In this document: piece after piece, positions 23,966 to 52,715 of the stretch
Numbering within the stretch: the stretch's first letter is position 1
Layout of the letters: every line of letters begins with the position of its first letter
From: Bacteroidales bacterium
Lineage (GTDB): Bacteria > Bacteroidota > Bacteroidia > Bacteroidales > Tenuifilaceae
Direction: 5' to 3'
DNA length: 64,000 bases
NCBI GenBank assembly: GCA_037442025.1
Contig: JBBIRB010000010.1
Coordinates: forward strand, 4,002 to 68,001
Program-made: the position numbers and the translations under genes
The notes under the pieces: model-generated
The model's database searches: none
Seen by the model: the letters and a program-made list of their open reading frames with translations, nothing else
Told to the model about the DNA's origin: nothing

Positions 23966-23990
23966 GGCTTTTGGTGTTTTTACCTTACAG

Positions 23991-26119: not shown

Positions 26120-27510
26120 TGCCTTTCCTTGTTCTTCAGTGTTTCAGTTATTGAGTATGCCAGTTTATCGATATTGCCTGCACCCATGGTTAGGAGAATA
26201 TCGATTGGGTTTTCTTTTACAAAGGTTTCAATACCATTAAATGCACAATAACCCTTTTGGGGGCTTGTAACAGCATGGAGAATTAGCTGGGGTGTAACCC
26301 CTTCAATGGGCTCTTCGCGGGCCGGATATATATCGGTTACAACAGCATAATCTAAAATGCTTAAACTCTCAGCAAATTCTTTGGCAAAATCGCGAGTACG
26401 GGAGTACAAGTGGGGTTGAAATATGCCCGTAATTTTCCTGTTGGGGAACATTCGACGCGCCGACCCAATGGCGGCTTTCAGTTCTTCAGGGTGGTGAGCA
26501 TAATCGTCGATATATATGCTTTTTCTTCCCCAATGCCTCAGGTCGAAGCGACGATTTACTCCCTTAAAACTTTCGAGGCCACTCATAATTTGTTCCGCAT
26601 TTGCCCCTAGAATGCTTGCAACTGCTGAAGCGGCTACCGCATTTTCAACATTGTACAGACCCAAAACGCCCAACGAAATTTCTTCGATTGTTTGGCTCGG
26701 TATTTCGAGAGAGAAGGAGCTGAGGCCGTTTGTAAGCTTCAGATCTGTTGCCCTAAAATTTGCGTCGAGGTCGACAGCGTATGTGTAAACTTTTAAATCG
26801 TTGCGGTGGGCAGCAACCCATTCGAGGCCCTGTTTTACAATCAGAACCCCATTTGGTTTAAGATTGCTTACAAAATCTCTGAAAGCCTCCTGAACCTGCT
26901 TGTAGGTTCCAAAAACATCGAGGTGGTCGGCATCAATTGAGGTTATAATGGCAATATTGGGCATTAGCTGCAGAAAACTCCGGTCGAATTCGTCGGCCTC
27001 AACAACCAGAATGTTGCTCCCCCTGTCGTTCAGTATAAGATTTGACCCATAGTTTTTCGAAATTCCACCCAAAAAAGCATCGCAGCCCCCCAGGGTGTGG
27101 CATAGCAAATGTGCAAGCATGGTAGAAGTGGTGGTTTTACCATGGGTGCCAGCAACAGCAGCAGTAAAGCGGCTACCCGAAAGGATTCCAAGAGCCTGAG
27201 AACGTTTTACCACGTTGAAACCATGGGTTCTGAAAAAACTCAGTTCGCTATGGTTGTCAGAAACAGCTGGGGTGTAAACCACCAGCGTTTCTGTATCGGG
27301 CGTTCTGAATTCCTTCGGAATAAGGTCTATGCTGTCGGTATAATGTATTGCCATTCCCTCCTTTTCGAGTTGGGTGGTGAGTTCGGTTTGCGTGCTGTCG
27401 AATCCTGCAACGTCTAGTTGATGCTTACGGAAATAGCGCGCAAGGGCACTCATACCAATACCTCCAATACCTACAAGGTAAACCCTACTTATCCTTTCCA
27501 TTTCGTACAT
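26116..27510 (-). CDS. murC: UDP-N-acetylmuramate--L-alanine ligase
   Basis: VYLVGIGGIGMSALA and GTHGKTTTSTMLAH are Mur ligase motifs. The gene sits in the dcw cluster. Confidence 0.95.
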   Translation of the reverse strand: MYEMERISRVYLVGIGGIGMSALARYFRKHQLDVAGFDSTQTELTTQLEKEGMAIHYTDSIDLIPKEFRTPDTETLVVYTPAVSDNHSELSFFRTHGFNVVKRSQALGILSGSRFTAAVAGTHGKTTTSTMLAHLLCHTLGGCDAFLGGISKNYGSNLILNDRGSNILVVEADEFDRSFLQLMPNIAIITSIDADHLDVFGTYKQVQEAFRDFVSNLKPNGVLIVKQGLEWVAAHRNDLKVYTYAVDLDANFRATDLKLTNGLSSFSLEIPSQTIEEISLGVLGLYNVENAVAASAVASILGANAEQIMSGLESFKGVNRRFDLRHWGRKSIYIDDYAHHPEELKAAIGSARRMFPNRKITGIFQPHLYSRTRDFAKEFAESLSILDYAVVTDIYPAREEPIEGVTPQLILHAVTSPQKGYCAFNGIETFVKENPIDILLTMGAGNIDKLAYSITETLKNKERQ

Positions 27511-27618
27511 ACACCTATTGCTTTATTTCCAATTTGTTACAAATTTTAAAACTAACCTGCTCTTTTTAAGTCTACTGACAATAAAGTTATTACCAAGATT
27601 TCAACAAGTACAGTATGC

Positions 27619-28725
27619 CTAGCAAAGTTTCAGGGCCATTTGAGCTATGCTTTGGGCTGCATTTGGTTTTGCTAAGTGCCTGATATTTTGAGACAATGAA
27701 TTCAATCGGTTAGGGTTATTTAGTAGTTCAATAGCGCTCTTAACCAGAATGCTTCTTGCCTGCGAATCGGCAATAAGTACGGCTGCTCCTTTTTCGCTTA
27801 GTGCCTGGGCATTTTTAGTTTGATGGTCTTCTGCCACATTAGGCGAAGGTACCAATATTGCGGGCTTGCCAACCAAGCAAAGTTCCGAAATGGTTCCGGC
27901 GCCTGCTCTCGAAATTACCATGCTGGCAACCGAAAAAGCCAAATCCATTCGGTTAATAAAGTCGAAAACCTTAACGTTGCCAACTTTGTATTTATTAACT
28001 TCTTCAATAACTTCGTTGTGGTAAAGTTTGCCGGTTTGCCAAAGCAAGGTGAGGTTATTCTCAATAGCAATGCTGGTTATGTTTTCTAAGATGCTCTGGT
28101 TTATGGTTCGTGCTCCCAAGCTGCCCCCAATAACCAAAATGACACTGTTTCCTTGGGGAATATTGAAAAACTCACGGGCCTCGGCTTCCAATGGGCCAAC
28201 GTTGTCGAGACCCTGCCGTACGGGATTGCCAGTAATAACAATTTTTTCCTTTTGGAAAAAGCGCTCCATACCCTCGTAAGCTACACATATGAGGTTTGCT
28301 TTTTTGGCAAGCAACTTATTGGTAATTCCGGCGTATGAGTTTTGTTCCTGAATAATTGTTGGAATACCTTGGCTTTGTGAGGCGCGGAGTATGGGCCCGC
28401 TAGCGTATCCGCCAACTCCTATTGCCAATTGGGGCTTGAATTCGCGAACAATTCGCTTGGCTTGGGCCATGCTTTTCATCAGTTTGAATGGGAAGGCCAG
28501 ATTTTTCAATGTTAATTTGCGCTGAAGACCAACTACAGGTAACCCAACAATTTTATAGCCAGCAGCCGGCACGCGTTCCATCTCCATTCGGCCTTCGGCA
28601 CCAACAAAAAGTATGTTGGCATCGGGCGAAATTTCCTTAATTGCGTTAGCAATGGATATGGCAGGGAAAATATGCCCCCCCGTTCCACCACCACTAATTA
28701 TTATTCTTGGGCTCTTCTTCTCCAT
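27619..28725 (-). CDS. murG: UDP-GlcNAc:lipid I N-acetylglucosaminyltransferase
   Basis: IIISGGGTGGHIFPAISIA and the C-terminal motif ISRAGAGTISELCLVGKPAILVP...DHQTKNA. Confidence 0.95.
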   Translation of the reverse strand: MEKKSPRIIISGGGTGGHIFPAISIANAIKEISPDANILFVGAEGRMEMERVPAAGYKIVGLPVVGLQRKLTLKNLAFPFKLMKSMAQAKRIVREFKPQLAIGVGGYASGPILRASQSQGIPTIIQEQNSYAGITNKLLAKKANLICVAYEGMERFFQKEKIVITGNPVRQGLDNVGPLEAEAREFFNIPQGNSVILVIGGSLGARTINQSILENITSIAIENNLTLLWQTGKLYHNEVIEEVNKYKVGNVKVFDFINRMDLAFSVASMVISRAGAGTISELCLVGKPAILVPSPNVAEDHQTKNAQALSEKGAAVLIADSQARSILVKSAIELLNNPNRLNSLSQNIRHLAKPNAAQSIAQMALKLC

Positions 28726-29863
28726 TGTAAATTTCTTCTTTGTTTTGGCTACGGCTAATACTTAGAAGTATTCCGAAAGCTGCGCTAGTAAATAGTACCG
28801 AGGTTCCGCCCATGCTTACAAGAGGCAGGGGCTGGCCTGTAACCGGAAAAAGGTTAACTGCCACTGCCATATTTATCATGGCCTGAAATACCAAAAGGAG
28901 GGTTAGTCCTATGGCCAGAAAGGCTGGGAATGTTCGTTGCGATTTTTTTACAATCATTCGTCCTCGGTATAGTAAAACCAAGTACGCAAAAAGCATGGCA
29001 AAAGCACCGAACAGTCCGTATTCCTCAATAATAATGGCATAAATAAAGTCGGAGTAAGGGTGTGGCAAAAAGTTGCGCTGGGTGCTATTGCCGGGGCCTT
29101 TCCCAAAAGGACCACCGGTAGCAACTGCAATTTTCGATTGAACAGCTTGGTAGTTCTCGCCGCCCTCGTCGCCACTCGCAAAGTTTTCAATCCTATTTTT
29201 CCATGTTTTTGCTCGTCCACCCGCATTGGTTTCGAGTAAAACGAAAATACCTACTCCAAGCAGAACCACCCCAATGCCAGTAAACCCCAATAGGTATTTA
29301 AGGTTAATGCGACCAATAAAAAGGAGAATCCAGCATGTGGCACCTAGCAGCGCGGCTGTTGAGAAGTTGGCAGGTAAAATGAGCAGGCAAATAATGGCAA
29401 TAGGAATTATTAAAGGCAGAAAGGTGGTTTTAAAATCCTTAATAGTATCCTGTTTCTGCGAAAGTAAGCGGGCCACATACATAATAAGGGCCAACTTGGC
29501 AAAGTCCGATGTTTGAATAGTTATTCCCAATCCTGGTATTGTAAGCCACCTTGCAGCCTCATTCAGGCTGGTTCCGAAAACCAGAGTAATTGCAAGCAAT
29601 GGAATGGAAAGAAGCATAAGTATTTGAGAAATGGGGGAATAGACTTTGTATGGGATTAAATGCGTAATGAAAATTATACCCAATCCGGCTAGCAGGAACC
29701 CCATTTGCTTTAAAAAATAGTATGCGGTATTGCCTCCCTGAAAACGGTAAGCCAGCGAACCCGTTGAACTGTACACTGCCAGCAGCGAAAATACCGATAG
29801 TCCCATAACGATTAACCAAATCGTTCGGTCGCCCTTCAGGTATTTTCCAAATAGTCCGTTCAT
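28694..29863 (-). CDS. ftsW: Peptidoglycan glycosyltransferase FtsW (SEDS family)
   Basis: 389-aa multi-TM protein with SEDS motifs (TDFIYAIIIEEYGLFG, GQPLPLVSMGGTS). The gene sits in the dcw cluster. Confidence 0.9.
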   Translation of the reverse strand: MNGLFGKYLKGDRTIWLIVMGLSVFSLLAVYSSTGSLAYRFQGGNTAYYFLKQMGFLLAGLGIIFITHLIPYKVYSPISQILMLLSIPLLAITLVFGTSLNEAARWLTIPGLGITIQTSDFAKLALIMYVARLLSQKQDTIKDFKTTFLPLIIPIAIICLLILPANFSTAALLGATCWILLFIGRINLKYLLGFTGIGVVLLGVGIFVLLETNAGGRAKTWKNRIENFASGDEGGENYQAVQSKIAVATGGPFGKGPGNSTQRNFLPHPYSDFIYAIIIEEYGLFGAFAMLFAYLVLLYRGRMIVKKSQRTFPAFLAIGLTLLLVFQAMINMAVAVNLFPVTGQPLPLVSMGGTSVLFTSAAFGILLSISRSQNKEEIYNGEEEPKNNN

Positions 29864-29875
29864 TTTTTGGTAGCT

Positions 29876-31228
29876 TTATAGTTCGCGAACCGCTTGTTTG
29901 AATTGTCGTCCACGGTCCTCATAATTTTCAAACAGATCGAAGCTGGCACAGGCAGGCGAAAGCAGAACGGTATCGCCGGGTTGCGAGAGTTTATAGGCAT
30001 GCTGAACGGCCTCAAGGGCCGAACGGGCATCGACCATTATTGGAACAATTTCTCCAAACTCCTTATGGAGTTTTTTGTTATCGACACCAAGACAAACTAT
30101 TGCCTTTACCTTTTCCTTGGCAAGCTCAATAAGGTCGGTGTAGTCGTTGCCCTTATCGGTTCCACCTGCAATCCATACTACCGGGGTAGTCATGCTTTCG
30201 AGAGCATACCAGGCCGAGTTAACATTGGTGGCTTTCGAGTCGTTAATGTAAAGAACACCCCTTACCGATAGTACTTTCTCGAGCCGGTGCTCAACCCCTT
30301 GGAAGTCGGCCAAACTTTCGCGAATCACATCCTTTCGGATGTTTAGGGCGTGCCCTGCAATACCAGCAGCCATTGAGTTGTAAACATTGTGCTTGCCTTT
30401 AAGCGAAAGGTCTTCGATTGACATGTTGAAATCGCTATTGTTATATGTAATGAACATTTTATTCCCTTCGAGGTAGGCAGCCTGCCTCTCTTTTACTTTA
30501 TGCGAAAATGGGAGCTGCTTTGCGCGAAGTACAATTTGGTTCAGGTGGTCCATAGTTACCTCGTCGTCGGAGCAGAAAATGAAGCAATCGTCCTCCTCGA
30601 GGTTTCTGGTTATTCGAAACTTCGACTCAACATAGTTCTGCATTTTAAAGTCGTAACGATCGAGGTGATCGGGGGTAATATTCAGCAGAATGGCAATGTC
30701 GGCTTTGAAGGTGTACATGCCGTCGAGCTGAAAGCTGCTGATTTCGAGCACATAATAATCGTAATTGCCCTCGGCAACTGCCTGTGCGAAGCTGATCCCG
30801 ATGTTTCCGGCTAGGCAAACGTTCAGCCCAGCTTTCTTCATCATATGGTATATAAGCGAAGTGGTAGTAGTTTTTCCGTTGGTTCCCGTTATGCACACTT
30901 TAGTAGCAGTGGTGTACCTGCCAGCAAACTCAATTTCCGAAATAACAGGAATACCATTTTTGCGAATCTCCTCAATTAGTGGAATTCGGTCGGGGATACC
31001 CGGCGACTTTATCACCTCGCCCGCATTCAGAATGAGTTCGGGAGTATGCTTGCTTTCCTCCCAGGCAATGCCGTATTTTGTAAGGGTTTGCTTGTATTTT
31101 GGTTTAAGCGTTCCGCTATCGGATAAAAAAACATCGAAGCCCTGCTTTTGGGCCAGAATGGCCGATCCTACGCCGCTTTCGCCACCCCCCAGAACCACAA
31201 TTCGGTTTGCATTTCGAGCAGTTGCCAT
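29876..31228 (-). CDS. murD: UDP-N-acetylmuramoylalanine--D-glutamate ligase
   Basis: RIVVLGGGESGVGSAIL and [15 protein letters not shown] prefer the ATG at 31228 (MATARNANR...), 2 nt after the mraY stop. The track's 75-aa N-terminal extension overlaps mraY. Confidence 0.93.
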   Translation of the reverse strand: MATARNANRIVVLGGGESGVGSAILAQKQGFDVFLSDSGTLKPKYKQTLTKYGIAWEESKHTPELILNAGEVIKSPGIPDRIPLIEEIRKNGIPVISEIEFAGRYTTATKVCITGTNGKTTTTSLIYHMMKKAGLNVCLAGNIGISFAQAVAEGNYDYYVLEISSFQLDGMYTFKADIAILLNITPDHLDRYDFKMQNYVESKFRITRNLEEDDCFIFCSDDEVTMDHLNQIVLRAKQLPFSHKVKERQAAYLEGNKMFITYNNSDFNMSIEDLSLKGKHNVYNSMAAGIAGHALNIRKDVIRESLADFQGVEHRLEKVLSVRGVLYINDSKATNVNSAWYALESMTTPVVWIAGGTDKGNDYTDLIELAKEKVKAIVCLGVDNKKLHKEFGEIVPIMVDARSALEAVQHAYKLSQPGDTVLLSPACASFDLFENYEDRGRQFKQAVREL

Positions 31229-31230
31229 AA

Positions 31231-32481
31231 CTAACGGATTTTTAGGGTTACTACGGTTATTACTGCAAGCATTATAGCTACAATCCAGAATCGGGTAACG
31301 ATTTTGGGTTCTGGGTAGCCCTTTATTTGGTAATGATGATGCAATGGCGACATTTTGAAGATTCTGCGACCCTCGCCGTACCTGCGTTTGGTGTACTTGA
31401 AGTACGAAACCTGTATAACAACCGACAGGCTTTCGACAAAGAAAATTCCGCAAAGAATGGGTATGAGAAGTTCCTTACGGATTAGGATGGCGTAAACAGC
31501 AATAATTCCACCAATAGCTAAGCTGCCTGTGTCACCCATGAAAACCTGAGCGGGGTAACTGTTATACCACAAAAAGCCAATGGCAGCACCAATAAAGGCG
31601 CTCATGAAAATTACCATTTCCCCAGTATTGGGAATGTACATTATATTAAGGTACTCCGAGTAGATTACGTTACCCGAAAGGTAGGCGAAAATCCCAAGCG
31701 TTGTGCCTATTACAACGCTTACTCCGGTAGCCAAGCCGTCGAGCCCATCGGTTAGGTTGGCCCCGTTCGATACAGCTGTTACTATTAGTATAACAGCTGC
31801 AATAAAAACAATCCATGTTAACCTTTCCTTCCAGGGCCCCTTAAAGGGAACAAGGAAAGAGTACTCAAACTCGTTGTCCTTAAAAAAGGGTATGGTGGTT
31901 TTGGTTGTTTTTTGGTTAGGGCTTAGAATTACTTGCTTTCCGCCCGTTTGGTCGTTTCCTCCAACAATTTCGGTTCCTTCGGTGGCTACATGCTTTAAAA
32001 CTCGCTCGCGTACAACAATATCGGGGCTGAGGTAAATGGTTATGCCAACAAATAGTCCCAGAGTAATTTGCCCCAGTATTTTCAATCGGCCCGAGAGCCC
32101 CTTCTTGTTTTTCAGGAAAACCTTTATGTAATCGTCGGCAAAACCCACCAAGCCCAACCAAACGGTTGTAACCAGAAGAATGATAACGTAAATATTTTTA
32201 AGGTTGGCAAAGAGCAGAACCGGAATGAGGATAGATGCCAGAATTATAATTCCGCCCATGGTGGGAGTTCCCTTCTTCTGCATTTGACCCTCGAGCCCCA
32301 GGTTCCGAATCTCTTCTCCAATCTGCTTCTTTTGGAGGTAAACAATAATGCGTTTACCAATAAGCAGGGCAAATGCAAGCGCGGTAATGACCGCCATTGC
32401 CGAACGGAACGAAATGTACTGGTAGAGCCCGGCTCCCGGCACATCGTATTGATCGAGATATTTAAGCAGATAGTATATCAT
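31231..32481 (-). CDS. mraY: Phospho-N-acetylmuramoyl-pentapeptide transferase
   Basis: 416-aa multi-TM protein with [19 protein letters not shown] and [11 protein letters not shown]. An extra insertion follows TM5. Confidence 0.95.
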
Positions 32482-33941
32482 GGTTTTAGGGTTTTGAATA
32501 TTTCTGCAACTTCTTCCTTATCGTCGAAATGGTGCTTAACGCCCTTTATTTCCTGGTAGGTTTCGTGGCCCTTGCCAGCAATAAGTACAATATCGCCGGG
32601 GGCTGCCAGTAGGCAGGCGGTGCGAATGGCCTCGCGCCTGTCGGTTATAGAAAGCACCTTGCCCACCATGCCGGGTTCAATGCCCTGTTTCATATCGGCA
32701 ATTATGGCATCCGGCTCCTCGGAGCGCGGATTGTCTGAGGTGAGTATAACCAAACTGCTTCCTGAGGCAGCGACCTTGGCCATAGCAGGGCGTTTGGTTT
32801 TGTCGCGGTCGCCCCCAGCGCCCAGAACGGTAATGAGTTTTTCGTTTTCCTTCAGCAGTTCGTTTATGGTGCCAATAACATTCTCAACGGCATCGGGTGT
32901 ATGAGCATAGTCAACAATAGCAATTACACCGTTGGGTGCTCGTAGGTGTTCGAAACGACCTATTACTGGCTCCATAGCACTCAGGTTGGTAAGCACCTCT
33001 TGTTTGTCGAAATTCATCAATAGCGCAGCAGCATAAACTGCTGTAAGGTTGTAGGCATTAAATTGACCAATGAGGCGGCACCACATTTCGGTGCCATCAA
33101 TATTCAGCTGCATACCGTAGAGTTGATGGTCGACAATGCGGCACTTGAAATTGGCCATGGAACGAAGCGAGTAGGTGTGAACTTTCGCCTTGGTATTCTG
33201 CACCATTACCCGCCCATTGCGGTCGTCGATATTGGTAAGGGCAAAGGCGCTTGAGGGAAGCAGGTCGAAAAACCGCTTTTTGGCCTTCAGGTACTCATCG
33301 AAGGTTTTGTGGTAGTCGAGATGGTCGTGGGTTATGTTGGAGAAAATTCCACCAAAAAAATGCAGACCGGCAATGCGGTTCTGTGCTATGGCATGCGAAC
33401 TAACCTCCATAAAACAATGGGAGCATCCGCCGCTCACCATTTCGGCCAGCAGCTTATTCAAACTAATTGGGTCGGGTGTGGTATGGGTGCTGGGTACTTC
33501 GGTTTTGTGGATGTAGTTGGTAACAGTTGAGAGCAACCCAGATTTAAAGCCCAACGATTGGGCCAAACGGTACAGCAAAGTTGCCGTAGTGGTTTTACCA
33601 TTAGTTCCGGTAATACCCACAAGCGTCAAACTCTTCGATGGGTTTCCGTAAAACTCAGAGGCCATAACACCTGCTAGATACGAGCAATCGGCCACCCTTA
33701 CGTACGTAACATTGGGATCGGATTGCATTGGAAGTGTTTCGCAAACAATGGCCGAGGCACCCTTCTCAATGGCGCTGGCAATATAGTTGTGCCCGTCGGA
33801 TTGGGTTCCCTTTATAGCTATGAAAGCCGAGTGGGGGGCAACTGCTCTCGAGTCGATGCAAAGTTGGTCAATGCTAACGCACAGGTTACCCTTAACCTCC
33901 AGAACCTCGCTTTGAGGTATTATGCTTTCAAGTTTCACCAT
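32478..33941 (-). CDS. murE: UDP-MurNAc-L-Ala-D-Glu--2,6-diaminopimelate ligase
   Basis: [14 protein letters not shown] and DNPRSEEP are MurE motifs. There is a 4-nt overlap with mraY. Confidence 0.95.
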
Positions 33942-33942
33942 T

Positions 33943-36057
33943 CTAGTTGCTCATTTCAATATGAATTCTTTCGCCCTTTTCAACCCTGCTGCCGGGCGTA
34001 ATGCTTTGGCTGCGAACAAAACCCCTGCCTGTTACCCTAACCCGAAGTCCCGAGTTTTCTAAAAGGAAAAGGGCGTCCTTGAGGCTCATCCCAGTAACAT
34101 CGGGAACCAAATTGGGAATAATCGATTTTTTGCGCATTTCAACCTTCTCGTCGGTGCGAACTGTAGCCACCCAAGGGAAATCCTTACTTTTGTCGGCGAG
34201 GGGTACACCCAATTCGCGGAGCGCATACCCAAGTTCGGGCTTAAAACCACTTTTCGATTCGGGCAGTTCGGGCATTTCGCCCCTTTCAATTTCTGGAAAC
34301 CACTCCTTGCTAGTAGCGTAAACCTTGTCGGAAATTTCCTTGAAAATGGGACCTGCAACCAGATTGCCGTAGTAAACGCTGTTCGATGGCGAGTTAACTA
34401 CCACAATGCACGAGTACTTGGGGTCTTCGGCAGGGAAGTAGCCTGCAAACGAAGCCTGATAACTTATCCCTCTTTCGCCCCTGTAGCCTCGTGTGCCCCT
34501 TGCTATTTGGGCCGTTCCGGTTTTGCCCGCAATTTTATAGTTGGGGTTTTTCAGGTTCTTTGCAGTTCCGTTCTCCACAACCCCCTCGAGTATTTCGCGA
34601 ACCTTGCGTAGGGTGCTGCGTGAGCAAATGGAGTGCGAAATTACTTGGGTTGGGAACTCCCTGTCCACGGCTCCGTGGGTACGTATGGCCTTTACAAATC
34701 GGGGTTTCACCATGCGCCCATTGTTGGCAATGGCATTGTATAGTGTGAGAATTTGAATGGGTGCCAACTTTATTTCGTAGCCAATGCTCATCATGGGCAT
34801 GGAAATACCCGACCAGAGTTTATCGCCCGGGTACTTAATGTATGGGGCCGATTCACCTTTTATTTCGAGGTTCAGCGGTTTGTTCAGGTTCAGGTCGTAT
34901 ATGCGATCGATGAACTGCCTCTCTTTCCCTTTGTAATATTTTGTTACCAGTTCAGTTACGCCAACATTCGACGAGTACTCAAATACCTCCTTCACGCTAA
35001 TTCGGCCGTAGCCACCCTCCTTGGTATCTGTAACTGTTTTGTCGTAGTATTTCACCTTGCCGTTACGGGTATTCACTGTATCGGTTAGCGAAATGTGCCC
35101 ATCCTCGAGCAGTGCTATAAGTGCTGCTATTTTAAATGTCGAGCCCGGTTCGTTGGCTTCGCCAATGGCGTAGTTGAACATTTCGGTGTAGCTTCCGTCG
35201 CCATTCTTTTTCAGGTTGGCAATGGCTTTTATGTCGCCCGTTTTTACCTCCATCAGAATTACTGTGCCGTGTTCGGCATCGTGGCGGTTCAACTGTCTGC
35301 GTAGAGCCCCTTCGGCAACATCCTGCAGGGAAACATCGAGCGTGGTAATAATATCGTGGCCATCTTCGGGAGCCACCTGCATGGAACTACCCACTTCAAC
35401 CCACATGTTGCCCGGCACCCTTTGCTTAATGCTAACGCCAGCCTTGCCCCGCAAAATATGGTCGTATGCGCCCTCAATGCCCACGGCAACTCCATCCTCG
35501 TTAATATTACCAATGGTACGAGCGGCAAGGCTGGCGTGAGGTTTAATTCGACGGTTCACCTGAACCGGAATGAATCCACCCTTGTTTTCACCCAGCCTGA
35601 AAAGCGGGAATTTTTTAACTTCCTGCAGTTCAATATAGTTTATTTGGCGGCTGCCAATGGGGTAGTATCTTTTGTTGCGGGCGTGCTTACGGGCATTTAC
35701 CAGCTCCGATTTGTACGAGTAGTGCGATTTATCCCTGAAAAACTGCGAAAGGCATAGGGCCAGCGAATCGACTTTGTTGTTAAACAGGGCATCGCTAAGG
35801 CCAGCGGCTTTCAGGTCCATTCGAATTTCGAAATAAGGAACCGAAGTGGCCAGAATGCGCCCGTCGGTGGAACAAATGTCGCCGCGGTTGGGTTCAATGG
35901 TAATGTCGCGGTATGTAACCGAGCGGGCCATGCTGCGTAGCTTTGCTCCCTCAATAAATTGAAGGTAAATGATTTGGCCAAAAATAGCAATGGCCAGTAG
36001 AAGGAAGAAAGCGTAAACCAACCCAACTCGAAACAGTATTTCCTTTTTTACCGACAT
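33943..36057 (-). CDS. ftsI: Penicillin-binding protein 3-type transpeptidase (FtsI), with C-terminal PASTA-like domain
   Basis: The three transpeptidase motifs are STFK (PGSTFKIAAL), SSN (YSSNVG) and KTG (GKTGTAQ). I prefer the ATG at 36057 (MSVKKEILF...). The track extension to 36099 overlaps the ftsL 3' part in another frame. Confidence 0.92.
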   Translation of the reverse strand: MSVKKEILFRVGLVYAFFLLLAIAIFGQIIYLQFIEGAKLRSMARSVTYRDITIEPNRGDICSTDGRILATSVPYFEIRMDLKAAGLSDALFNNKVDSLALCLSQFFRDKSHYSYKSELVNARKHARNKRYYPIGSRQINYIELQEVKKFPLFRLGENKGGFIPVQVNRRIKPHASLAARTIGNINEDGVAVGIEGAYDHILRGKAGVSIKQRVPGNMWVEVGSSMQVAPEDGHDIITTLDVSLQDVAEGALRRQLNRHDAEHGTVILMEVKTGDIKAIANLKKNGDGSYTEMFNYAIGEANEPGSTFKIAALIALLEDGHISLTDTVNTRNGKVKYYDKTVTDTKEGGYGRISVKEVFEYSSNVGVTELVTKYYKGKERQFIDRIYDLNLNKPLNLEIKGESAPYIKYPGDKLWSGISMPMMSIGYEIKLAPIQILTLYNAIANNGRMVKPRFVKAIRTHGAVDREFPTQVISHSICSRSTLRKVREILEGVVENGTAKNLKNPNYKIAGKTGTAQIARGTRGYRGERGISYQASFAGYFPAEDPKYSCIVVVNSPSNSVYYGNLVAGPIFKEISDKVYATSKEWFPEIERGEMPELPESKSGFKPELGYALRELGVPLADKSKDFPWVATVRTDEKVEMRKKSIIPNLVPDVTGMSLKDALFLLENSGLRVRVTGRGFVRSQSITPGSRVEKGERIHIEMSN

Positions 36058-36064
36058 GTTTGCA

Positions 36065-36453
36065 CTACAGCCTTGCTTTAATTTTTTTGGGTGGCACAAC
36101 CGATTCCTTCAGGCCCAGGCCTTTTTCTTCAACCATGCATGCCACCTGAGTTTGCTTGCTAATATTCATGAGTTCAGCGGCCGTTGTTATCGATTCGGCC
36201 CTTAGATTCTTCACTTCAATCTAATTTCTTGGCTTTGCCTAACCAACTTCTCGTATCGGTAGCGGTTGGCAATGTATATAATGGCCAGCAGTGCCAGAAA
36301 AAAGAAGTAGGGCACCTGCGAGGTAACGCTGTCGCGGCTCAGAATATTTCCGCTGAGTAGTTCGCCCAGGCTGCTCCCCTTTTTTTTGTCGGGTTTTGCT
36401 GCCTTGCCGTCTTTCTCGTCAATGAATTCGACCCGTTGGTTTTCAGTGCTCAT
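36065..36453 (-). pseudogene. ftsL: ftsL-like cell division gene interrupted by an apparent 1-nt frameshift
   Basis: The N-terminal part (36211..36453, 80 aa, TM YFFFLALLAIIYIA) stops at TGA 36211-36213. An adjacent frame (36065..36220) continues as IEVKNLRAESITTAAELMNISKQTQVACMVEEKGLGLKESVVPPKKIKARL. This is the expected FtsL coiled-coil/C-terminal half, and it ends 7 nt before the ftsI ATG. Confidence 0.7.
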
Positions 36454-37349
36454 AGTTTTTCGGCAATTCGTAATTTAGCGCTCCGTGCGCGCGTGTTTGC
36501 TTGATTCTCCTCGTCGGAGGGAACAATTACCTTGCGCGATATCAGCTTAAAGGGCGAGGAGGTATTCCCGTAGAAATCGGTCTCCACCTTTCCTTCAAAG
36601 TTTCCAGTTTTCATAAAGTTTTTCACCAGCCTGTCCTCCAGCGAATGATAGGCAATAACCACTAGCCTTCCTTGGGGTGCCAGCAGGGTTTGTGCTTGGC
36701 TCAGCATTTGCTCAAGGGCCCGCATTTCGCCATTCACCTCAATGCGAAGCGCCTGAAATGCTTGCGCCATCATTTTGTTCTGAACCTTTTGCGGGAAGAA
36801 CTTCTGAAGCAAACCGAACAGTTCCTCCACCGTTTCAATGGGTTTAATTTGGCGAGCCTTCACCATTTCGTGGGCCAGCTTGCCGGCATTGGAAAGCTCG
36901 CCGTAGAGCCTTAGCAGTTCGGCCAGCTTTTCGGTGGGGTAGGTGTTTACCACGGTGGCGGCGCTAACGGGGCTGGCCTGGTTCATGCGCATATCTAGCG
37001 GACCCTTATGCCTAAACGAAAAGCCCCTGTTGGGGCTATCGAAGTGGTGCGAAGAAACGCCCAAATCGGCCAGAATGCCATCGACCCTTTGAACCCCTTG
37101 GTATCGAAGGAAGTTGCCAACGAAACGGAAATTTCCCCGCACAAAGATGAACCGCTTGTCGGCAGGTGCGTTAGCGGCAGCATCCTCGTCCTGGTCGAAC
37201 CCAAAAAGGCGGCCCTTGGCCGAGAGTTTTTCGAGAATGGCCCGTGAGTGGCCACCCCCACCGAAGGTAAGGTCGACATAGGTTCCGTTGGGCTTAATGT
37301 TAAGCCCCTCGATGCTCTCGTTTAGCAGCACGGGTACGTGGTACGCCAT
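36450..37349 (-). CDS. rsmH: 16S rRNA (cytosine1402-N4)-methyltransferase
   Basis: MAYHVPVLLNESIEGL...YVDLTFGGGGHS...DLGVSSHHFD...SLEDR are RsmH/MraW signatures. Confidence 0.95.
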   Translation of the reverse strand: MAYHVPVLLNESIEGLNIKPNGTYVDLTFGGGGHSRAILEKLSAKGRLFGFDQDEDAAANAPADKRFIFVRGNFRFVGNFLRYQGVQRVDGILADLGVSSHHFDSPNRGFSFRHKGPLDMRMNQASPVSAATVVNTYPTEKLAELLRLYGELSNAGKLAHEMVKARQIKPIETVEELFGLLQKFFPQKVQNKMMAQAFQALRIEVNGEMRALEQMLSQAQTLLAPQGRLVVIAYHSLEDRLVKNFMKTGNFEGKVETDFYGNTSSPFKLISRKVIVPSDEENQANTRARSAKLRIAEKL

Positions 37350-37352
37350 ATC

Positions 37353-42842: not shown

Positions 42843-45058
<2,216 letters not shown>

Positions 45059-45067
45059 TTATTAGTG

Positions 45068-45490
45068 TTAGTTTGTGTCAGTAAATTTTCCAATTACCTG
45101 TAGCCTAATGTCTTCAATATGAAAATTAGGAATACCCTTGTTTTTAAAAAACTCTGAGAGCAAATGGTTCAGCTCTTCATCGTTATAATTCTCAATGCGA
45201 TCCGATTTTGAGCAATATAGGTGATGATGGTTTTCGAGAATTGCATCGTACCGCATAATATCCTTTTCGGTTTTTACCCTTTTTATCAAACCGCTTTCGG
45301 TTAAGGCATCTAAAACTTTGTAAACGGTAGCAGTAGAAATGTTTGGATGGCTCTTTCTGATGAAATCAATAATGTTATCAGCGCTCGGATGATTATTAAG
45401 CTTAAGTATTGCTTCAAAAATGGCTATCCGCTGGGGTGTAACTTTTAGTCCCTTCTCTTCAATTTTTCGACTTATATCTTCAACGCTCAT
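45068..45490 (-). CDS. Fur-family transcriptional regulator (PerR-like by context)
   Basis: The 140-aa ORF has LKVTPQRIAIFEAIL...HPSADNI...ISTATVYKVLDALTESGLI and an HHHLYC motif. It ends 18 nt upstream of katG. It lacks the two CxxC structural-zinc motifs. Confidence 0.85.
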   Translation of the reverse strand: MSVEDISRKIEEKGLKVTPQRIAIFEAILKLNNHPSADNIIDFIRKSHPNISTATVYKVLDALTESGLIKRVKTEKDIMRYDAILENHHHLYCSKSDRIENYNDEELNHLLSEFFKNKGIPNFHIEDIRLQVIGKFTDTN

Positions 45491-47944: not shown

Positions 47945-48337
47945 ATGTCGTTAATTCTGCTTGTTGCAACGTTCGATTTGGCGCTATATATCATTAAGAA
48001 CATGTTTCAGCAGGATTTCATGCTGTTTTCAGTGGATGCCCTTGGTGAACTGTTCGGAATATTTCTAGTTATTCTTATTGGAGTTGAATTGCTTCAGGCG
48101 GTTAAGGCGTTTCTCGAGGAGGAAATAGTTCCTGTTGAAATTGTAGTTTTGGTTGCCATTATTGCAATTGCACGCAAGGTAATTGTGTGGGAATTCAAGG
48201 AACTTTCGGCCATGGAAACTTTTGCCCTATCGGGCATGATGCTGGTTTTAGCAATTACATACTTCCTTATTAAGCACACCGACCATAAGTGCCGAATTAG
48301 TTTAAAGAGCGAAAAGAAGGAATTAGAGCAGAAGTAG
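47945..48337 (+). CDS. PsiE-family (phosphate-starvation-inducible E-like) membrane protein
   Basis: 130-aa ORF with 4 TM segments. The pattern LGELFGIFLVILIGVELLQAVKAFL...VEIVVLVAIIAIARKVIV is typical of the PsiE family. The frame stays open 84 nt upstream without a canonical start codon. Confidence 0.6.
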   Translation: MSLILLVATFDLALYIIKNMFQQDFMLFSVDALGELFGIFLVILIGVELLQAVKAFLEEEIVPVEIVVLVAIIAIARKVIVWEFKELSAMETFALSGMMLVLAITYFLIKHTDHKCRISLKSEKKELEQK

Positions 48338-48345
48338 TAAACTGT

Positions 48346-49074
48346 TTAAACCCTTTGGCTGTTGGCAAATTCTATTGCCTTCTCGAAATTTTTTGGTTTA
48401 CCAACGTCAATCACAAAGTTGTTGGTAGTATCGTACCCGTAAATTAGGTTTTTGCTGCAAAGGCTAAGGTAGGCGTCTACTATTGAAAAGGGGCCGCTAG
48501 CGTGTATGTATTCAAAAATTTGGGGCGAAATTACATGGATACCAGCAAAGGCAAACGCTTTTAGTTCGCCTCGGTCCTTTGTGGGAATTATTTCCTTGCC
48601 CGTAAGGTTGTTTCGCCATCCAGAGAGCATCATGCGCCCATCGAACAGAAAGTGCCTCGAAGAGTCTCTTTGGCCAACGGCCAATGTGGCTAGTGCCATT
48701 TTTTGCGAATGGGCATTAATCAGTTCGCGCAAATCGATATCCGACAGAATGTCGACATTATGAACCAGGAATGGTTCCTCACCATCGAGAAACGACTTTG
48801 CTTTTAAAAGGCCTCCGCCAGTGTCGAGCAGCCGGTTGCGTTCGTCCGATATTGTAATACGGCAGTTGAAAGTATTGCGGTTCAAATACTCCTCCACCAT
48901 GTCGGCAAAATGGTGAACATTAATGATAATATCGGTAATCCCCGATGTCGATAATTTTTCGATCACATGAGCAATGAGCGGTTTGCCTGCAACCTCAACA
49001 AGCGCCTTAGGCCTATCGATGGTATAAGGCTGAAGTCGGGTACCCAAACCTGCTGCCAAAATCATTGCCTTCAT
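48346..49074 (-). CDS. MurU-like sugar-1-phosphate nucleotidylyltransferase
   Basis: The 242-aa ORF begins MKAMILAAGLGTRLQPYTIDRPKALVEVAGKPLI, an NTP-transferase fold. Its size and its neighbour, an AmgK-like kinase, fit MurNAc-1-P uridylyltransferase. Confidence 0.7.
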   Translation of the reverse strand: MKAMILAAGLGTRLQPYTIDRPKALVEVAGKPLIAHVIEKLSTSGITDIIINVHHFADMVEEYLNRNTFNCRITISDERNRLLDTGGGLLKAKSFLDGEEPFLVHNVDILSDIDLRELINAHSQKMALATLAVGQRDSSRHFLFDGRMMLSGWRNNLTGKEIIPTKDRGELKAFAFAGIHVISPQIFEYIHASGPFSIVDAYLSLCSKNLIYGYDTTNNFVIDVGKPKNFEKAIEFANSQRV

Positions 49075-49084
49075 GGGAATATGT

Positions 49085-49216
49085 CTATTTATTCTTTTCG
49101 GGTTTGCAAAGTTTCTTCGATTTGTCGGACAGTAAACCGCACTTTTTACAAACGTAGTCGTTTTTTTTCGAATCGTTTTTTTTCAGTTCCCCCTTTTCGC
49201 AAAGTTTTTTTGCCAT
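49085..49216 (-). CDS. Small Cys4 protein (43 aa; below the ORF-track cutoff)
   Basis: The ATG at 49216 lies 2 nt after the stop of the upstream kinase gene. The translation is MAKKLCEKGELKKNDSKKNDYVCKKCGLLSDKSKKLCKPEKNK, with four Cys in a C...CxxC...C pattern. TAG is at 49085-49087, 10 nt before the murU-like start. Confidence 0.45.
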   Translation of the reverse strand: MAKKLCEKGELKKNDSKKNDYVCKKCGLLSDKSKKLCKPEKNK

Positions 49217-49218
49217 TT

Positions 49219-50652
49219 TTAACCCTCCAGTTCTCGGTGCTTAACTAGAACCCTTACTCCTTCCTGATTGTTAAAAAGTTCAGCCAGCCGGCTTGCCATA
49301 TAAACCGAACGGTGCTGCCCGCCAGTGCAACCAAATGCAATTTCTAAATGCTCAAATCCTCGCGATTTGTACACATCAATTGTGGCGCGAATTAAACTTA
49401 GGGTTGTATCGAAGAATTTTTCTACTTCCCTGTGCTTTGCCAAAAAATTGGCTGTTTTCTTGTCGAGACCCGTGAGTGTGGCAAATTCGGCTAGCCTACC
49501 GGGGTTTGGTAATCCGCGGCAATCGAATACAAATCCGCCTCCATGCACAGGGTGCTCACTGGGATAGCCCTTTTTGAATGAGAAACTCGATATGTGAATT
49601 GTTAATCCTTTAAAATTTGATTGCTCCGCTTCATTTAAGGTGTAATTATTCTGAAGTATTCTGCCAATGTTAGCCAAATGGGGCAACTCGTTTGCTAGGT
49701 TTTCGAGCAGTTCGTTTAGGTTCATTACAGCATTGGGAATGCTAAGTAGAAAATGGCTCTTTCTCTCGAAGAAACCTCTGTAGCCGTAAGCCCCCAGAAC
49801 CTGCAGGGTTCTGAAAAGGGCAAAGTATGGCATGAGCGACACGTATTTGTAAATATCAACCTCTCTCTTGCCGGCCAATTGTTCGAGGTAGCGCTGAAAT
49901 AATTCGTTTCGGATTTCCTTTGGAAAATTGGCTCTGGCCTGGTAAATAAACGATGCTATGTCGTATAGTGCTGGCCCAATTCGCCCCCCCTGGTAGTCGA
50001 TAAAATGGGGTAATCCACTTAAAATAATCACATTACGCGACTGGAAATCGCGATACATGAAGTAATCGGCAGGAGCCTGCAACAGTTTTTTGGAAAGGGT
50101 TTCAAAATCATTTTCCAAAGCATCGTCGTTAAATAGCGTGCCTGTGGGTTTCAGAAAGGAGTACTTGAAGTAGTTCAGATCCCAGAATATGCTTCGATTA
50201 TCGAATGGCCTATGCGAGTATAGCCTAGTAGAGTCGATGCCTTCGAAACCTTCGGTTTGAAACTTTACCAATTCATCAACGGTAAATAAAAGTAACTTTT
50301 TGGTCGGCAAAGCCGAGGGTTCATTCCAATTAACCACGTGCGATACCAAATCGAAAAGCGATTGATTGCCTAAGTCGTTTTGAAGGTAGTATAACCTATT
50401 GGACGAAACTGCCAATATTTGCGGAACTTTTAACCCAGCGTTCGCGAAATGGCTGGAGAGATAAATGAATGCCTCATTTTCTTCGGTAATAGGGTTGTAA
50501 ACCCCAATTAATGTTGTATCGCCATTGGTAAGTCTGTAATATTTTCTGTTTGAGCCCGACTCGGCAAGGGGAGAAATAGCCAACGGATTTAAGCCCGTTA
50601 CCTTTCGGAATAGTTTGCTTAACTCATCGGTTGCTTGCAATTGTATAGCCAT
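49219..50652 (-). CDS. AmgK-like anomeric amino-sugar kinase (APH fold) fused to a RapZ C-terminal domain
   Basis: The N-terminal ~335 aa have phosphotransferase motifs YRDFQSRNVII and FIDYQGGRIGPALYDIASF. The C-terminal ~135 aa read FDCRGLPNPGRL...LTGLDKKTANFL...EIAFGCTGGQHRSVYMASRLAELF, matching the RapZ/YvcJ C-terminal domain signature GCTGGxHRSV. Confidence 0.75.
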   Translation of the reverse strand: MAIQLQATDELSKLFRKVTGLNPLAISPLAESGSNRKYYRLTNGDTTLIGVYNPITEENEAFIYLSSHFANAGLKVPQILAVSSNRLYYLQNDLGNQSLFDLVSHVVNWNEPSALPTKKLLLFTVDELVKFQTEGFEGIDSTRLYSHRPFDNRSIFWDLNYFKYSFLKPTGTLFNDDALENDFETLSKKLLQAPADYFMYRDFQSRNVIILSGLPHFIDYQGGRIGPALYDIASFIYQARANFPKEIRNELFQRYLEQLAGKREVDIYKYVSLMPYFALFRTLQVLGAYGYRGFFERKSHFLLSIPNAVMNLNELLENLANELPHLANIGRILQNNYTLNEAEQSNFKGLTIHISSFSFKKGYPSEHPVHGGGFVFDCRGLPNPGRLAEFATLTGLDKKTANFLAKHREVEKFFDTTLSLIRATIDVYKSRGFEHLEIAFGCTGGQHRSVYMASRLAELFNNQEGVRVLVKHRELEG

Positions 50653-50655
50653 GGT

Positions 50656-51336
50656 TTATCCGAAAAAGTAGTATAATGGAATAATGAACAGCAAGGCTGG
50701 AATAAGGTTCATGACCTCAATTTTCTTAATATTTAGAATGCTAAGAGATAAACCAATAAGCATGATTCCACCGGTAGCTTCAATTTCGTTAATAAAAGGT
50801 TCGCTTATGGATGCACCAATCCAGAAACTTAGCAAACTTATGCTTCCCTGATATAAAATGAGAGGAATGGCCGAAAACAGAACCCCTATGCCCAGAGAGG
50901 CAGCAAGGGCAACTGCTGTAAATCCATCCATTAAACTTTTTATTAGTAGAAGCTGGGGGTGATTACCCATTCCTTCCTGAATCGCACCAAGTATAGCCAT
51001 CGATCCAACACAGTAAATAAGAAAAGCGGTCATTAATCCCTCGTTAAATTTTCCGCTTTGCATTTTCAATTTAATCTGCAAGAACGAACCGCTTTTTTCC
51101 ATCCTTTCCTGAAGGTTCAGAACAGTGCCTAAGAGCCCACCCAGAATTAAACTGAATACAACAAGTAGCGGATTCTGGGTTTTTATACTCATGGCAACCC
51201 CCAGAAACATAGTAAACAGCCCAATAACGTTGAAGAAAGTATTCGAAACCTTTGTGGGAATTCTCGAGCCCAGTAGCAATCCTATTGCCCCTCCCACCAC
51301 TATGGCTCCCGCATTTATTAACGTGCCAAAAATCAT
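50656..51336 (-). CDS. DUF554-family membrane protein
   Basis: 226-aa ORF. MIFGTLINAGAIVVGGAIGLLLG... and the repeated Gly-rich TM pattern are typical of DUF554 (YdfK/YqgA-like). Confidence 0.7.
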   Translation of the reverse strand: MIFGTLINAGAIVVGGAIGLLLGSRIPTKVSNTFFNVIGLFTMFLGVAMSIKTQNPLLVVFSLILGGLLGTVLNLQERMEKSGSFLQIKLKMQSGKFNEGLMTAFLIYCVGSMAILGAIQEGMGNHPQLLLIKSLMDGFTAVALAASLGIGVLFSAIPLILYQGSISLLSFWIGASISEPFINEIEATGGIMLIGLSLSILNIKKIEVMNLIPALLFIIPLYYFFG

Positions 51337-52493: not shown

Positions 52494-52715
52494 ATAATTA
52501 GGGTTTGGCAAGTTGATGTTTGTGCTTAAAAAGTGAACTTGTCGAAATAACAATTATACAAAAATTATTGCTTTGCTCGCTAATTTTTCAGAATTAAAAC
52601 GTTTGCAAACATAGCTCATTGTATAAAAATGAAAAAGAGTTGCGTAAATATTTGCTTAAAATTGCCAATGTCGAAACTGTATAATAAGTTTGTTTCATCT
52701 TTATTTTTCGTAAAC

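Follow-up and report, generated by a model that had tools for sequence, protein, structure and literature searches.

The locus analysed here raises the question of what the C-terminal domain known from RapZ, a protein best understood as an enterobacterial RNA adaptor, is doing at the end of a sugar kinase. The first-pass annotation of the window, by which we mean the whole 64,000-nt stretch of DNA that was analysed, had placed an AmgK-like kinase fused to such a domain at 49219..50652 on the minus strand. We recovered this 477-aa open reading frame at exactly those coordinates, together with all of the motifs that had been cited for it, and YRDFQSRN, FIDYQGGR, LPNPG and GCTGGQHRS could be given verified positions. 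The features of the locus are as follows:

50656..51336, minus strand: gene for a DUF554 membrane protein, whose end lies 3 nt ahead of the start codon of the kinase
49219..50652, minus strand: full open reading frame for the AmgK-like kinase with RapZ C-terminal domain; 477 aa, 54.5 kDa, ATG start
49648..50652, minus strand: N-terminal APH-fold kinase domain, aa 1-335 (Pfam, NCBIfam, PDB, AF2)
50032..50049, minus strand: kinase catalytic loop D202-F-Q-S-R-N207; D202 and N207 invariant in 125/125
49996..49998, minus strand: D219 in the IDYQGGR motif, presumed metal-binding Asp and DFG equivalent; invariant in 125/125
49606..49647, minus strand: interdomain linker, aa 336-349, with the hinge at aa 341-343 (AF2 pLDDT)
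49225..49605, minus strand: RapZ-type C-terminal domain, aa 350-476 (PF22740, model of the domain)
49534..49545, minus strand: [H/N]-G-G-G loop, aa 370-373, inside an insertion relative to E. coli RapZ (family conservation, alignment gap)
49498..49506, minus strand: N383-P384-G385, with G385 at the position of the RapZ pocket His190; Gly in 125/125
49306..49329, minus strand: putative phosphate-binding loop C442-T-G-G-Q-H-R-S449, corresponding to E. coli RapZ C247-S254, with C-x5-R-S spacing (conservation, E. coli pocket residues)
49075..49218, minus strand: 144-bp spacer that separates the kinase gene from the murU-like gene, containing TACGTTTG at 49149-49156
48346..49074, minus strand: MurU-like sugar-1-phosphate uridylyltransferase, 242 aa (Pfam NTP_transferase, NCBIfam, PDB)

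The N-terminal part of the protein had been predicted to be an APH-fold, AmgK-like kinase with an intact catalytic loop, and database searches, fold comparison and residue conservation all agreed with this. PF01636 (APH) matched aa 26-264 (E 3.5e-12) and was the only Pfam family found over aa 1-349, and PDB entry 3csv was the top match by both phmmer and Foldseek, followed by other small-molecule kinases of the APH fold. The kinase domain was modelled with pLDDT >90 in the full-length AF2 model, and D202, N207 and D219 were invariant in all 125 fusion-family members; by analogy with the APH/protein-kinase-like fold in general, we take D219 to be the metal-binding Asp. AmgK was the sole NCBIfam kinase family matched, with NF045759 spanning aa 21-311 at near full-length profile coverage and with scores below the equivalog cut-offs (61.3 bits versus 550 for NF045759, and 27.3 versus 500 for NF045698). 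These models appear to have been built on single-domain proteobacterial enzymes. The fusion protein has in common with AmgK an APH-fold kinase whose catalytic loop is intact and whose partner is a MurU-like uridylyltransferase; it differs from the proteobacterial enzyme, a single-domain protein of ~38 kDa, in its mass of 54.5 kDa, in its extra RapZ-type domain of 130 aa, in scoring far under the AmgK equivalog cut-off, and in having some relatives that carry MurU as well.

The uridylyltransferase gene that had been reported downstream is present on the same strand, 144 bp beyond the kinase gene. Its product contains PF00483 and has P. putida MurU (4y7t, E 1.5e-23) as its best PDB match, with 8hhd, also named MurU, matched as well; its best NCBIfam matches are two MurU models, at 148.4 bits against a cut-off of 370 and 134.9 against 250. 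Of 80 genomes, drawn from several phyla, about 66 have a MurU gene directly downstream of the fusion. The two genes have even become one in places, nine cluster representatives and L048 being single APH-RapZ_C-NTP_transferase polypeptides, and three-domain fusions occur in at least nine lineages. When the open reading frames within 5 kb were clustered across 80 loci, nothing was recurrent besides MurU except antisense shadow ORFs; the kinase/MurU pair sits in housekeeping surroundings that have no conserved glycan-synthesis neighbours.

Since both domains occur in one reading frame in all of the 125 homologues examined, which come from many phyla, we could exclude that two genes had been joined by mis-assembly or by a frameshift, as well as a split-gene artefact, and the protein is a genuine single polypeptide rather than a pair of separate genes. 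No record of the identical protein was found; the closest relative in the homologue search, from a Logan assembly, is 94% identical, and 682 cluster representatives were obtained at E<=1e-30. The fusion is present in Bacteroidota and, far more widely, in several phyla: full-length copies were found in Bacteroides, Prevotella, Parabacteroides and Tannerella, including Tannerella MAGs with the AmgK-RapZ_C fusion, and in MAGs of about seven other phyla. In the literature searched, no paper links AmgK and RapZ, and the architecture is apparently undescribed there. Some database entries call the fusion protein 'RNase adapter RapZ', a name that is probably misleading.

The C-terminal part was identified as a RapZ C-terminal domain, as had been proposed, and it is complete. 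PF22740 covered aa 350-476 over its entire profile (positions 1-121 of 121, E 2.4e-34), E. coli RapZ residues 158-280 were matched in a PDB sequence search (E 5e-21), and a model of the domain (pLDDT 90.8) superimposed on RapZ 5o5s with a TMt of 0.91 and an rmsd of 1.9 Å at 41% identity by Foldseek. The P-loop N-domain of RapZ is gone, its position being taken by a kinase of the amino-sugar type, as the annotation had also suggested: the NCBIfam RapZ model aligned from profile position 153 onward only (110.9 bits versus a cut-off of 244), and aa 1-349 matched only APH. In the full-length AF2 model (pTM 0.75), the sole segment with pLDDT <50 was the linker with its hinge at aa 341-343, and neither this disordered hinge nor the pTM suggests a fixed interface between the two domains. 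The sugar-phosphate-binding subdomain of 6-phosphofructokinase is a fold relative of the RapZ C-terminal domain, and its pocket is reportedly unconserved in RapZ (PMC5737377). The fusion resembles that enzyme in setting a small alpha/beta module of the sugar-phosphate-binding kind next to a kinase domain that uses ATP (PMC5737377), but the relation is distant: a Foldseek search of our model against the PDB gave no classical phosphofructokinase at a meaningful score, with PFKFB3 entries listed at E 0.18 or worse. A PTP-like phosphatase fold for the C-terminal domain was rejected, as this search returned no cysteine phosphatase, LMW-PTP, arsenate reductase (ArsC) or rhodanese, leaving a motif-level lead.

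In E. coli RapZ, sulphate or malonate occupies a pocket formed by H190, T248, G249, H252 and R253 (PMC5737377), and the C-terminal domain binds GlcN6P by itself (PMC7073468). This pocket is widely conserved, whereas the RNA-binding region is confined to Enterobacteriaceae (PMC7073468; PMC7525490). Counting C247 with these residues, five of the six are kept and essentially invariant in the fusion family, and 125/125 members have Gly at the position of H190. Within the phosphate-binding loop, C442, G444, G445, H447, R448 and S449 are present in every one of the 125 members and T443 in 124, so that the loop is near-invariant despite an overall identity among fusion members of 39-50%, and the conservation suggests a phosphate pocket under selection. 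The fused domain also retains D377, which corresponds to E. coli RapZ Asp182 and is invariant, and K360, the equivalent of K170. It is homologous to the domain of RapZ and YvcJ from end to end, with equivalents of C247, T248, G249, H252, R253, D182 and K170 kept, and differs from RapZ in the changes His190 to Gly and Lys251 to Gln and in the addition of the [H/N]GGG loop and of a second conserved Cys (C378). In this loop, G372 and G373 are found in 125/125 members and G371 in 124/125, while 75 have N and 49 have H at position 370. The fusion differs from both RapZ and YvcJ in having an APH kinase instead of the P-loop N-domain and in lacking the RNA-binding tail.

We consider it probable that the protein is the salvage kinase of an AmgK/MurU route and that its RapZ-type domain, rather than acting as an RNase adaptor, binds an amino sugar in phosphorylated form and either tunes the pathway or assists it. 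As the AmgK, MurU and RapZ scores all fall far under the equivalog cut-offs, the case for orthology is built on gene pairing and on the logic of best hits, and the pathway was assigned because AmgK is the only kinase family matched, the neighbour is MurU-like, the pairing recurs across genomes and triple fusions exist. On this assignment, the fusion would be the usual form of AmgK in Bacteroidia and in several further phyla; its APH-fold domain would phosphorylate MurNAc, and possibly GlcNAc, at the anomeric carbon, and MurU would turn the sugar-1-phosphate into a UDP-sugar that could enter cell-wall synthesis without MurA/MurB. The RapZ-type domain, carried on a short flexible hinge and apparently keeping the phosphate pocket with its essential cysteine, would most likely bind such a phosphorylated sugar or a related metabolite of the pathway. 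Ligand binding may then adjust or assist the kinase/MurU pair and link the flux through salvage to the pool of amino-sugar phosphates. Which sugar is the substrate, which ligand is bound and in which direction any regulatory effect would act are all inferred here. With His190 changed to Gly in every member, the ligand may be something other than GlcN6P. For B. subtilis YvcJ to bind UDP-GlcNAc, the Walker-A lysine of its N-domain is needed (PMC7525490), and because this lysine is missing from the fusion, UDP-sugar sensing cannot simply be transferred to the fused domain. YvcJ of Firmicutes is encoded in synteny with GlmR, a uridylyltransferase that makes UDP-GlcNAc, and binds to it (PMC7525490); this linkage provides a parallel to the RapZ_C domain beside MurU in the fusion loci, as in both cases there is a link to a gene for a UDP-amino-sugar-forming uridylyltransferase.

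The RapZ-type domain could instead be catalytic itself, either as a cysteine-dependent MurNAc-6P phosphatase analogous to MupP that feeds the attached kinase or through other amino-sugar-phosphate chemistry, a reading that we regard as unlikely but not negligible. The invariant C-x5-R-S loop (C442-TGGQH-R448-S449) lies on a strand-loop-helix, and C-x5-R-[ST] is the spacing of the phosphate-binding loop of cysteine phosphatases. The Pseudomonas-type route requires a MurNAc-6P phosphatase upstream of AmgK, and in the triple fusions the RapZ-type domain sits between two pathway enzymes. The C247A and C247S variants of E. coli RapZ are each inactive, for which the authors suggested a 'specialised catalytic function' of the thiol, and crystals of the C-terminal domain with GlcN6P were described as containing a 'chemically transformed product' (PMC9841335). 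Phosphatase activity was also reported for B. subtilis YvcJ, although it was not assigned to a domain (PMC7525490). Against the catalytic reading, Foldseek of our model against the PDB found only RapZ structures, with nothing else better than E 0.03. Any likeness to MupP, the HAD-type MurNAc-6P phosphatase of Pseudomonas, would be a functional analogy only, at the step immediately upstream of AmgK; its fold is unrelated to that of the RapZ-type domain and we do not claim homology. A more general version, in which the RapZ C-terminal domain goes back to an ancient module that resembles an enzyme acting on amino-sugar phosphates, is not primarily RNA-binding and supplies a missing step of MurNAc salvage in the fusion, e.g. 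cysteine-dependent dephosphorylation of MurNAc-6P, seems to us distinctly unlikely. If true, the kinase-RapZ_C(-MurU) polypeptide would convert MurNAc-6P to UDP-MurNAc, and this would account both for the puzzling behaviour of C247S and for the GlcN6P density described as 'transformed' in E. coli RapZ.

Three further explanations give the domain no metabolite to sense, a nucleic acid to bind, or the pathway a different sugar. A purely structural domain, which dimerises or tetramerises the kinase or docks MurU without ligand sensing, would fit the MurU adjacency and the triple fusions, and the RapZ C-terminal domain is a stable homodimer that requires Asp182 (PMC5737377; PMC7073468), whose equivalent D377 is invariant. 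We nevertheless think such a role quite improbable, as near-absolute conservation of the whole phosphate loop, plus G385 and the GGG loop, at ~40% identity across phyla exceeds what an interface needs, and proteobacterial AmgK functions as a 38-kDa single-domain enzyme. It is highly improbable that the domain acts as in E. coli, binding regulatory RNA and possibly recruiting a ribonuclease, so that the protein would be both kinase and RNA adaptor. Where the E. coli pocket touches the RNA backbone, most of the residues involved are kept, as is K170 (K360), the domain is basic (pI 9.0, versus 8.8 for the E. coli C-terminal domain), and there are the entries bearing the RapZ name. However, of the enterobacterial consensus RxRxKNxQxRHRTxxKRK just H-R is kept, the protein ends three residues after HRE, and the K281-R282-K283 tail of E. 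coli RapZ is missing, the tails of the fusion family being short and not basic. H190A inactivates E. coli RapZ, in which His190 is essential for GlmZ processing (PMC9841335), yet this position is always Gly in the fusion; the tetramer-forming N-domain is absent, the RNA-binding region was reported as restricted to Enterobacteriaceae (PMC7073468), and an Rfam search of the whole 64,000-nt window matched no family, GlmY/GlmZ included. No second RapZ-like gene was found within the window. Of the RapZ-type sensing suggested in the first-pass annotation, the RNA side is unlikely here, given the missing tail and the replaced histidine; the residues of the metabolite pocket are largely retained, and wall-sugar salvage may be coupled to such sensing. 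That the kinase and nucleotidyltransferase activate a sugar other than MurNAc, e.g. for a surface glycan, appears decidedly doubtful. The missed AmgK and MurU equivalog thresholds would allow it, and Bacteroides has APH-fold anomeric kinases of other specificity, such as the GalNAc kinase BT4240; against this, it is AmgK and MurU in particular that head the curated and the structural matches, the housekeeping contexts hold no conserved glycan-synthesis genes, and the AmgK/MurU route was reported to be functional in Tannerella forsythia.

For a salvage kinase with a metabolite-binding domain, the fusion would bear on RapZ proteins in general. The ancestral biochemical role of RapZ/YvcJ is open, only the enterobacterial RNA-adaptor function being well understood, and conservation of the pocket with its cysteine extends far beyond organisms with GlmY/GlmZ. 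Here a RapZ domain without P-loop domain or RNA tail is joined to a kinase, and often to the following enzyme too, and strong selection appears to maintain it in hundreds of lineages, some of them dominant genera of the human gut. The fusion is therefore a good natural test case for the original role of the domain, one in which metabolite handling is testable in a simple enzymatic setting. Tannerella AmgK/MurU is in use as a peptidoglycan-labelling tool, and the salvage route influences fosfomycin susceptibility in MurA-bearing bacteria and is a proposed drug target. Both uses would be affected if a regulatory or catalytic domain is built into the enzyme of Bacteroidia.

With respect to transcription, the DUF554 gene may share a transcript with the kinase gene, but the partnership is not conserved. 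A scan of the 144-bp spacer before the murU-like gene revealed no terminator-like site; the promoter scan of the operon was a sigma-70 scan, with Bacteroidota promoters outside its coverage. Within this spacer, TACGTTTG at 49149-49156 is a TAnnTTTG-type motif, which we regard as a weak lead for an internal promoter.

The open reading frame at 49219-50652 (-) proved genuine: it starts with ATG and encodes a protein of 477 aa (54.5 kDa), in which the motifs quoted in the first-pass annotation lie where they had been placed. Domain searches recovered both of the domains proposed there:

aa 26-264, APH domain PF01636 (Pfam E 3.5e-12)
aa 350-476, RapZ C-terminal domain PF22740 (Pfam E 2.4e-34; 121/121 profile positions covered)

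Two AmgK equivalogs were the sole NCBIfam kinase families matched, one aligning nearly end to end (17-301 of 324), which together with PF01636 bears out an APH-fold, AmgK-type kinase, as the whole-profile PF22740 match does the RapZ C-terminal signature. The NCBIfam RapZ equivalog aligned to the C-terminal half only (profile positions 153-278), and all AmgK and RapZ scores were far under the equivalog cut-offs. In a PDB sequence search, the C-terminal 130 residues matched E. coli RapZ residues 158-280 (E 5e-21) and the N-terminal part matched the structural-genomics APH-fold protein 3csv. The full-length AlphaFold2 model (mean pLDDT 92.2, pTM 0.75) is confident inside each domain, whereas aa 341-343 form a disordered hinge. 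Its neighbours in the PDB are kinases of the APH fold that act on small molecules (3csv, corramycin kinase, choline kinases and methylthioribose kinase). When the C-domain was modelled by itself (pLDDT 90.8, pTM 0.86), RapZ structures were the sole PDB matches (5o5s: TMt 0.91, rmsd 1.9 Å, 41% identity), the next ones all having E above 0.03. Unlike canonical AmgK, a single-domain enzyme of ~38 kDa, the window protein has an additional RapZ-type domain.

This fusion is a large, old family. Among 8000 scored homologues returned by a word-indexed search, each of the top 120 (464-502 aa) contains both PF22740 and PF01636. When 1.84 billion cluster representatives (50% identity) were searched exhaustively, 682 matched at E<=1e-30, and the best 150 of these all cover both domains. 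A GTDB scan of one genome per species gave at least 600 matches, and the best 80 loci, which we analysed, all align across residues ~1-476 at 39-46% identity. Mapping across Bacteroidota, as the first-pass annotation had proposed, placed the fusion within these best 80 loci in Bacteroides, Phocaeicola, Parabacteroides, Tannerella sp., Prevotella, Alloprevotella and Paludibacter, and in Muribaculaceae, Prolixibacteraceae, Chitinophagales and Saprospirales. The same 80 include MAGs labelled Ignavibacteriales, Acidobacteriota/Terriglobales (many), Elusimicrobia, Gemmatimonadota, Spirochaetales, Opitutaceae and Eremiobacteraceae, a list that binning errors could lengthen; the many long Acidobacteriota contigs nevertheless argue for a real spread beyond Bacteroidota. 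In MAGs assigned to Acidobacteriota, Elusimicrobia, Gemmatimonadota, Spirochaetales and Eremiobacteraceae, full-length copies of the fusion precede MurU (loci L029, L031, L044, L047, L051-L053, L056, L061, L065, L068, L069, L073 and L076-L079). Their identity to the window protein (41-45%) is similar to that of the Bacteroides copies, which suggests either an ancient origin or horizontal spread.

The genes and candidate sites around the fusion are as follows:

47945-48337 (+), PsiE-family (phosphate-starvation-inducible) membrane protein gene, convergent with the murU-like gene
48346-49074 (-), MurU-like nucleotidyltransferase gene (242 aa), 144 bp downstream of the kinase gene
49149-49156 (-), TAnnTTTG motif (Bacteroidota -7 box type) in the spacer, 75 nt before the murU-like start
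50656-51336 (-), DUF554 membrane protein gene, stopping 3 nt upstream of the kinase start codon
upstream of the DUF554 gene, class-I fructose-1,6-bisphosphatase gene (Pfam)
52606-52613 (-), TAnnTTTG motif (Bacteroidota -7 box type) upstream of the fructose-bisphosphatase gene

A MurU-like uridylyltransferase downstream of the kinase had been predicted, and the same-strand gene found there has two MurU models as its best NCBIfam matches, under cut-off, and P. putida MurU as its closest solved structure (4y7t, E 1.5e-23); it also matches PDB entry 8hhd, named MurU. No terminator-like sites were found in the kinase-murU spacer, and no TAnnTTTG motif lies immediately upstream of the DUF554 or kinase gene. 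The spacer motif is, as a weak lead, a candidate internal promoter, and that at 52606-52613 is an equally tentative candidate promoter. The 64-kb window contains no Rfam matches, and no second RapZ-like ORF was found in it.

By a strict test, 51 of the 80 loci have a same-strand MurU-like ORF immediately after the fusion, and ~14 more have one where the stop-to-stop ORFs overlap (~66/80 in total). There are no other recurrent neighbours in these loci, and neither the PsiE-family nor the DUF554 gene is conserved beside the fusion in other genomes. In nine of the ten longest representatives (712-793 aa) all three domains are joined in the order APH, RapZ_C, NTP_transferase; these triple fusions (P0258, P0267, P0271, P0288, P0313, P0339, P0348, P0371 and P0373) represent at least nine 50%-identity clusters, and locus L048 (5959-8277) has the arrangement at the DNA level. 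A RapZ-type domain is thus repeatedly locked between two pathway enzymes. Since the fusion recurs in many independent sequences and in triple fusions, the two-domain protein is not an assembly artefact, an origin excluded by homologues, cluster representatives and loci spanning both domains. The 718-aa protein P0370 has a 3'-5' exonuclease domain (PF01612) N-terminal to the kinase-RapZ_C unit, which may be a merged gene call.

When 125 members (80 loci and 45 proteins) were aligned with the E. coli RapZ C-domain, no variation was seen at D202, N207 and D219, the catalytic residues of the kinase, or at C442, G444, G445, H447, R448 and S449 of the C-domain, and T443 was present in 124/125. The E. 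coli counterparts of these seven C-domain residues are C247, G249, G250, H252, R253, S254 and T248, respectively, in the sulphate/malonate pocket, the proposed GlcN6P site, and its nearby cysteine (PMC5737377; PMC9841335). D377 is also invariant and equals E. coli D182, which is required for CTD dimerisation. This conservation indicates that the predicted phosphate-binding pocket is under very strong selection. The fused domain thus retains a phosphate-binding pocket, but it has none of the features by which RapZ serves as an RNA adaptor. It differs from the E. coli domain in three respects: Gly replaces pocket His190 (125/125), Gln replaces Lys251 (120/125), and a short insertion contains an invariant [H/N]GGG loop, after which comes another conserved cysteine, C378 (109/125). 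Replacement of His190 and the extra GGG loop suggest that the ligand is not GlcN6P. RapZ-like RNA binding appears highly improbable: K170 is kept and the domain is as basic as its E. coli counterpart (pI 9.0 vs 8.8), but only H-R is left of the enterobacterial consensus RxRxKNxQxRHRTxxKRK (PMC7525490), the window protein stops three residues past HRE, and tails across the family are short and non-basic.

The kinase and MurU would form the AmgK/MurU shortcut, which turns MurNAc into UDP-MurNAc via MurNAc-alpha-1-P and has been demonstrated in Pseudomonas, Legionella, Caulobacter and Tannerella forsythia (PMC13046382; PMC7670621) and predicted for other Bacteroidetes (PMC5790795). The E. coli C-domain on its own binds GlcN6P; the RapZ pocket is widely conserved, and the RNA-binding region is not. 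The Firmicutes RapZ homologue YvcJ is encoded beside, and interacts with, GlmR, a uridylyltransferase making UDP-GlcNAc; similarly, the fused domain adjoins or is joined to another UDP-amino-sugar-forming uridylyltransferase. Given GlcN6P binding, the YvcJ-GlmR link and the linkage to MurU here, we think that the fused domain would bind one of the pathway's phosphorylated amino sugars and modulate or assist the kinase/MurU pair, thereby coupling salvage to the status of the amino-sugar-phosphate pool. The architecture in the first-pass reading is supported, and the domain identities, the intact sites, the linkage to MurU and the distribution were observed directly, while for its ligand and effect we reason by analogy, and from the family matches we infer MurNAc specificity of the kinase.

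That the C-domain is itself catalytic seems unlikely, although C247S inactivates E. coli RapZ, whose authors raise a catalytic role, chemically transformed GlcN6P has been raised for the E. coli crystals, phosphatase activity is reported for YvcJ, and the pathway requires a MurNAc-6P phosphatase upstream of AmgK. Cysteine phosphatases have a loop with C-x5-R-S spacing, as here, but the fold of the C-domain model resembles no phosphatase in the PDB. A purely oligomerisation or docking module is quite unlikely, as it would leave the invariant pocket unexplained. We consider it very unlikely that the pair acts on a different sugar; AmgK/MurU equivalog thresholds are not reached and Bacteroides has other APH-fold anomeric kinases, but the best matches are specifically AmgK and MurU and the context is housekeeping.

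Thousands of these proteins are already in databases, where naming is inconsistent ('phosphotransferase', 'RNase adapter RapZ', 'hypothetical'). Despite identical architecture, P0020, P0034 and P0052 are 'RNase adapter RapZ', whereas P0021, P0060, P0077 and P0121 are 'phosphotransferase' or 'hypothetical protein'; the RapZ label probably spread as a misannotation from the match to the C-terminal domain. The fusion, followed by MurU, is present in Tannerella MAGs, so the T. forsythia AmgK that has been studied biochemically probably shares this architecture. In the literature searched, which omits most subscription journals, no paper relevantly treats AmgK or MurU jointly with RapZ, links RapZ or YvcJ to Bacteroides, or describes PF22740 in another architecture. 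The fusion represents a widespread, apparently undescribed combination of known domains in a known pathway. It is chiefly valuable as a clean test, provided by nature, of what the RapZ C-terminal domain does apart from RNA binding, and as a caution to users and annotators of Bacteroidia AmgK.

Elsewhere in the window, a complete dcw (division and cell-wall) cluster (22499-37352, -) comprises rsmH/mraW, ftsI with a PASTA domain, murE, mraY, murD, ftsW, murG, murC, ftsA and ftsZ, with a 274-aa ORF (25322-26143, -) in the ftsQ position; its closeness to the salvage genes (~12 kb) is probably coincidence. A katG-like catalase-peroxidase gene (42843-45049, -), with a Fur-family regulator gene immediately upstream (45068-45490, -), is broken into a 143-aa N-terminal ORF, which leaves frame after ...FIRMAWHSA, and a 596-aa ORF. 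The two overlap around 44.6-44.75 kb, which indicates one frameshift: the gene is a pseudogene, or it was misread in sequencing.
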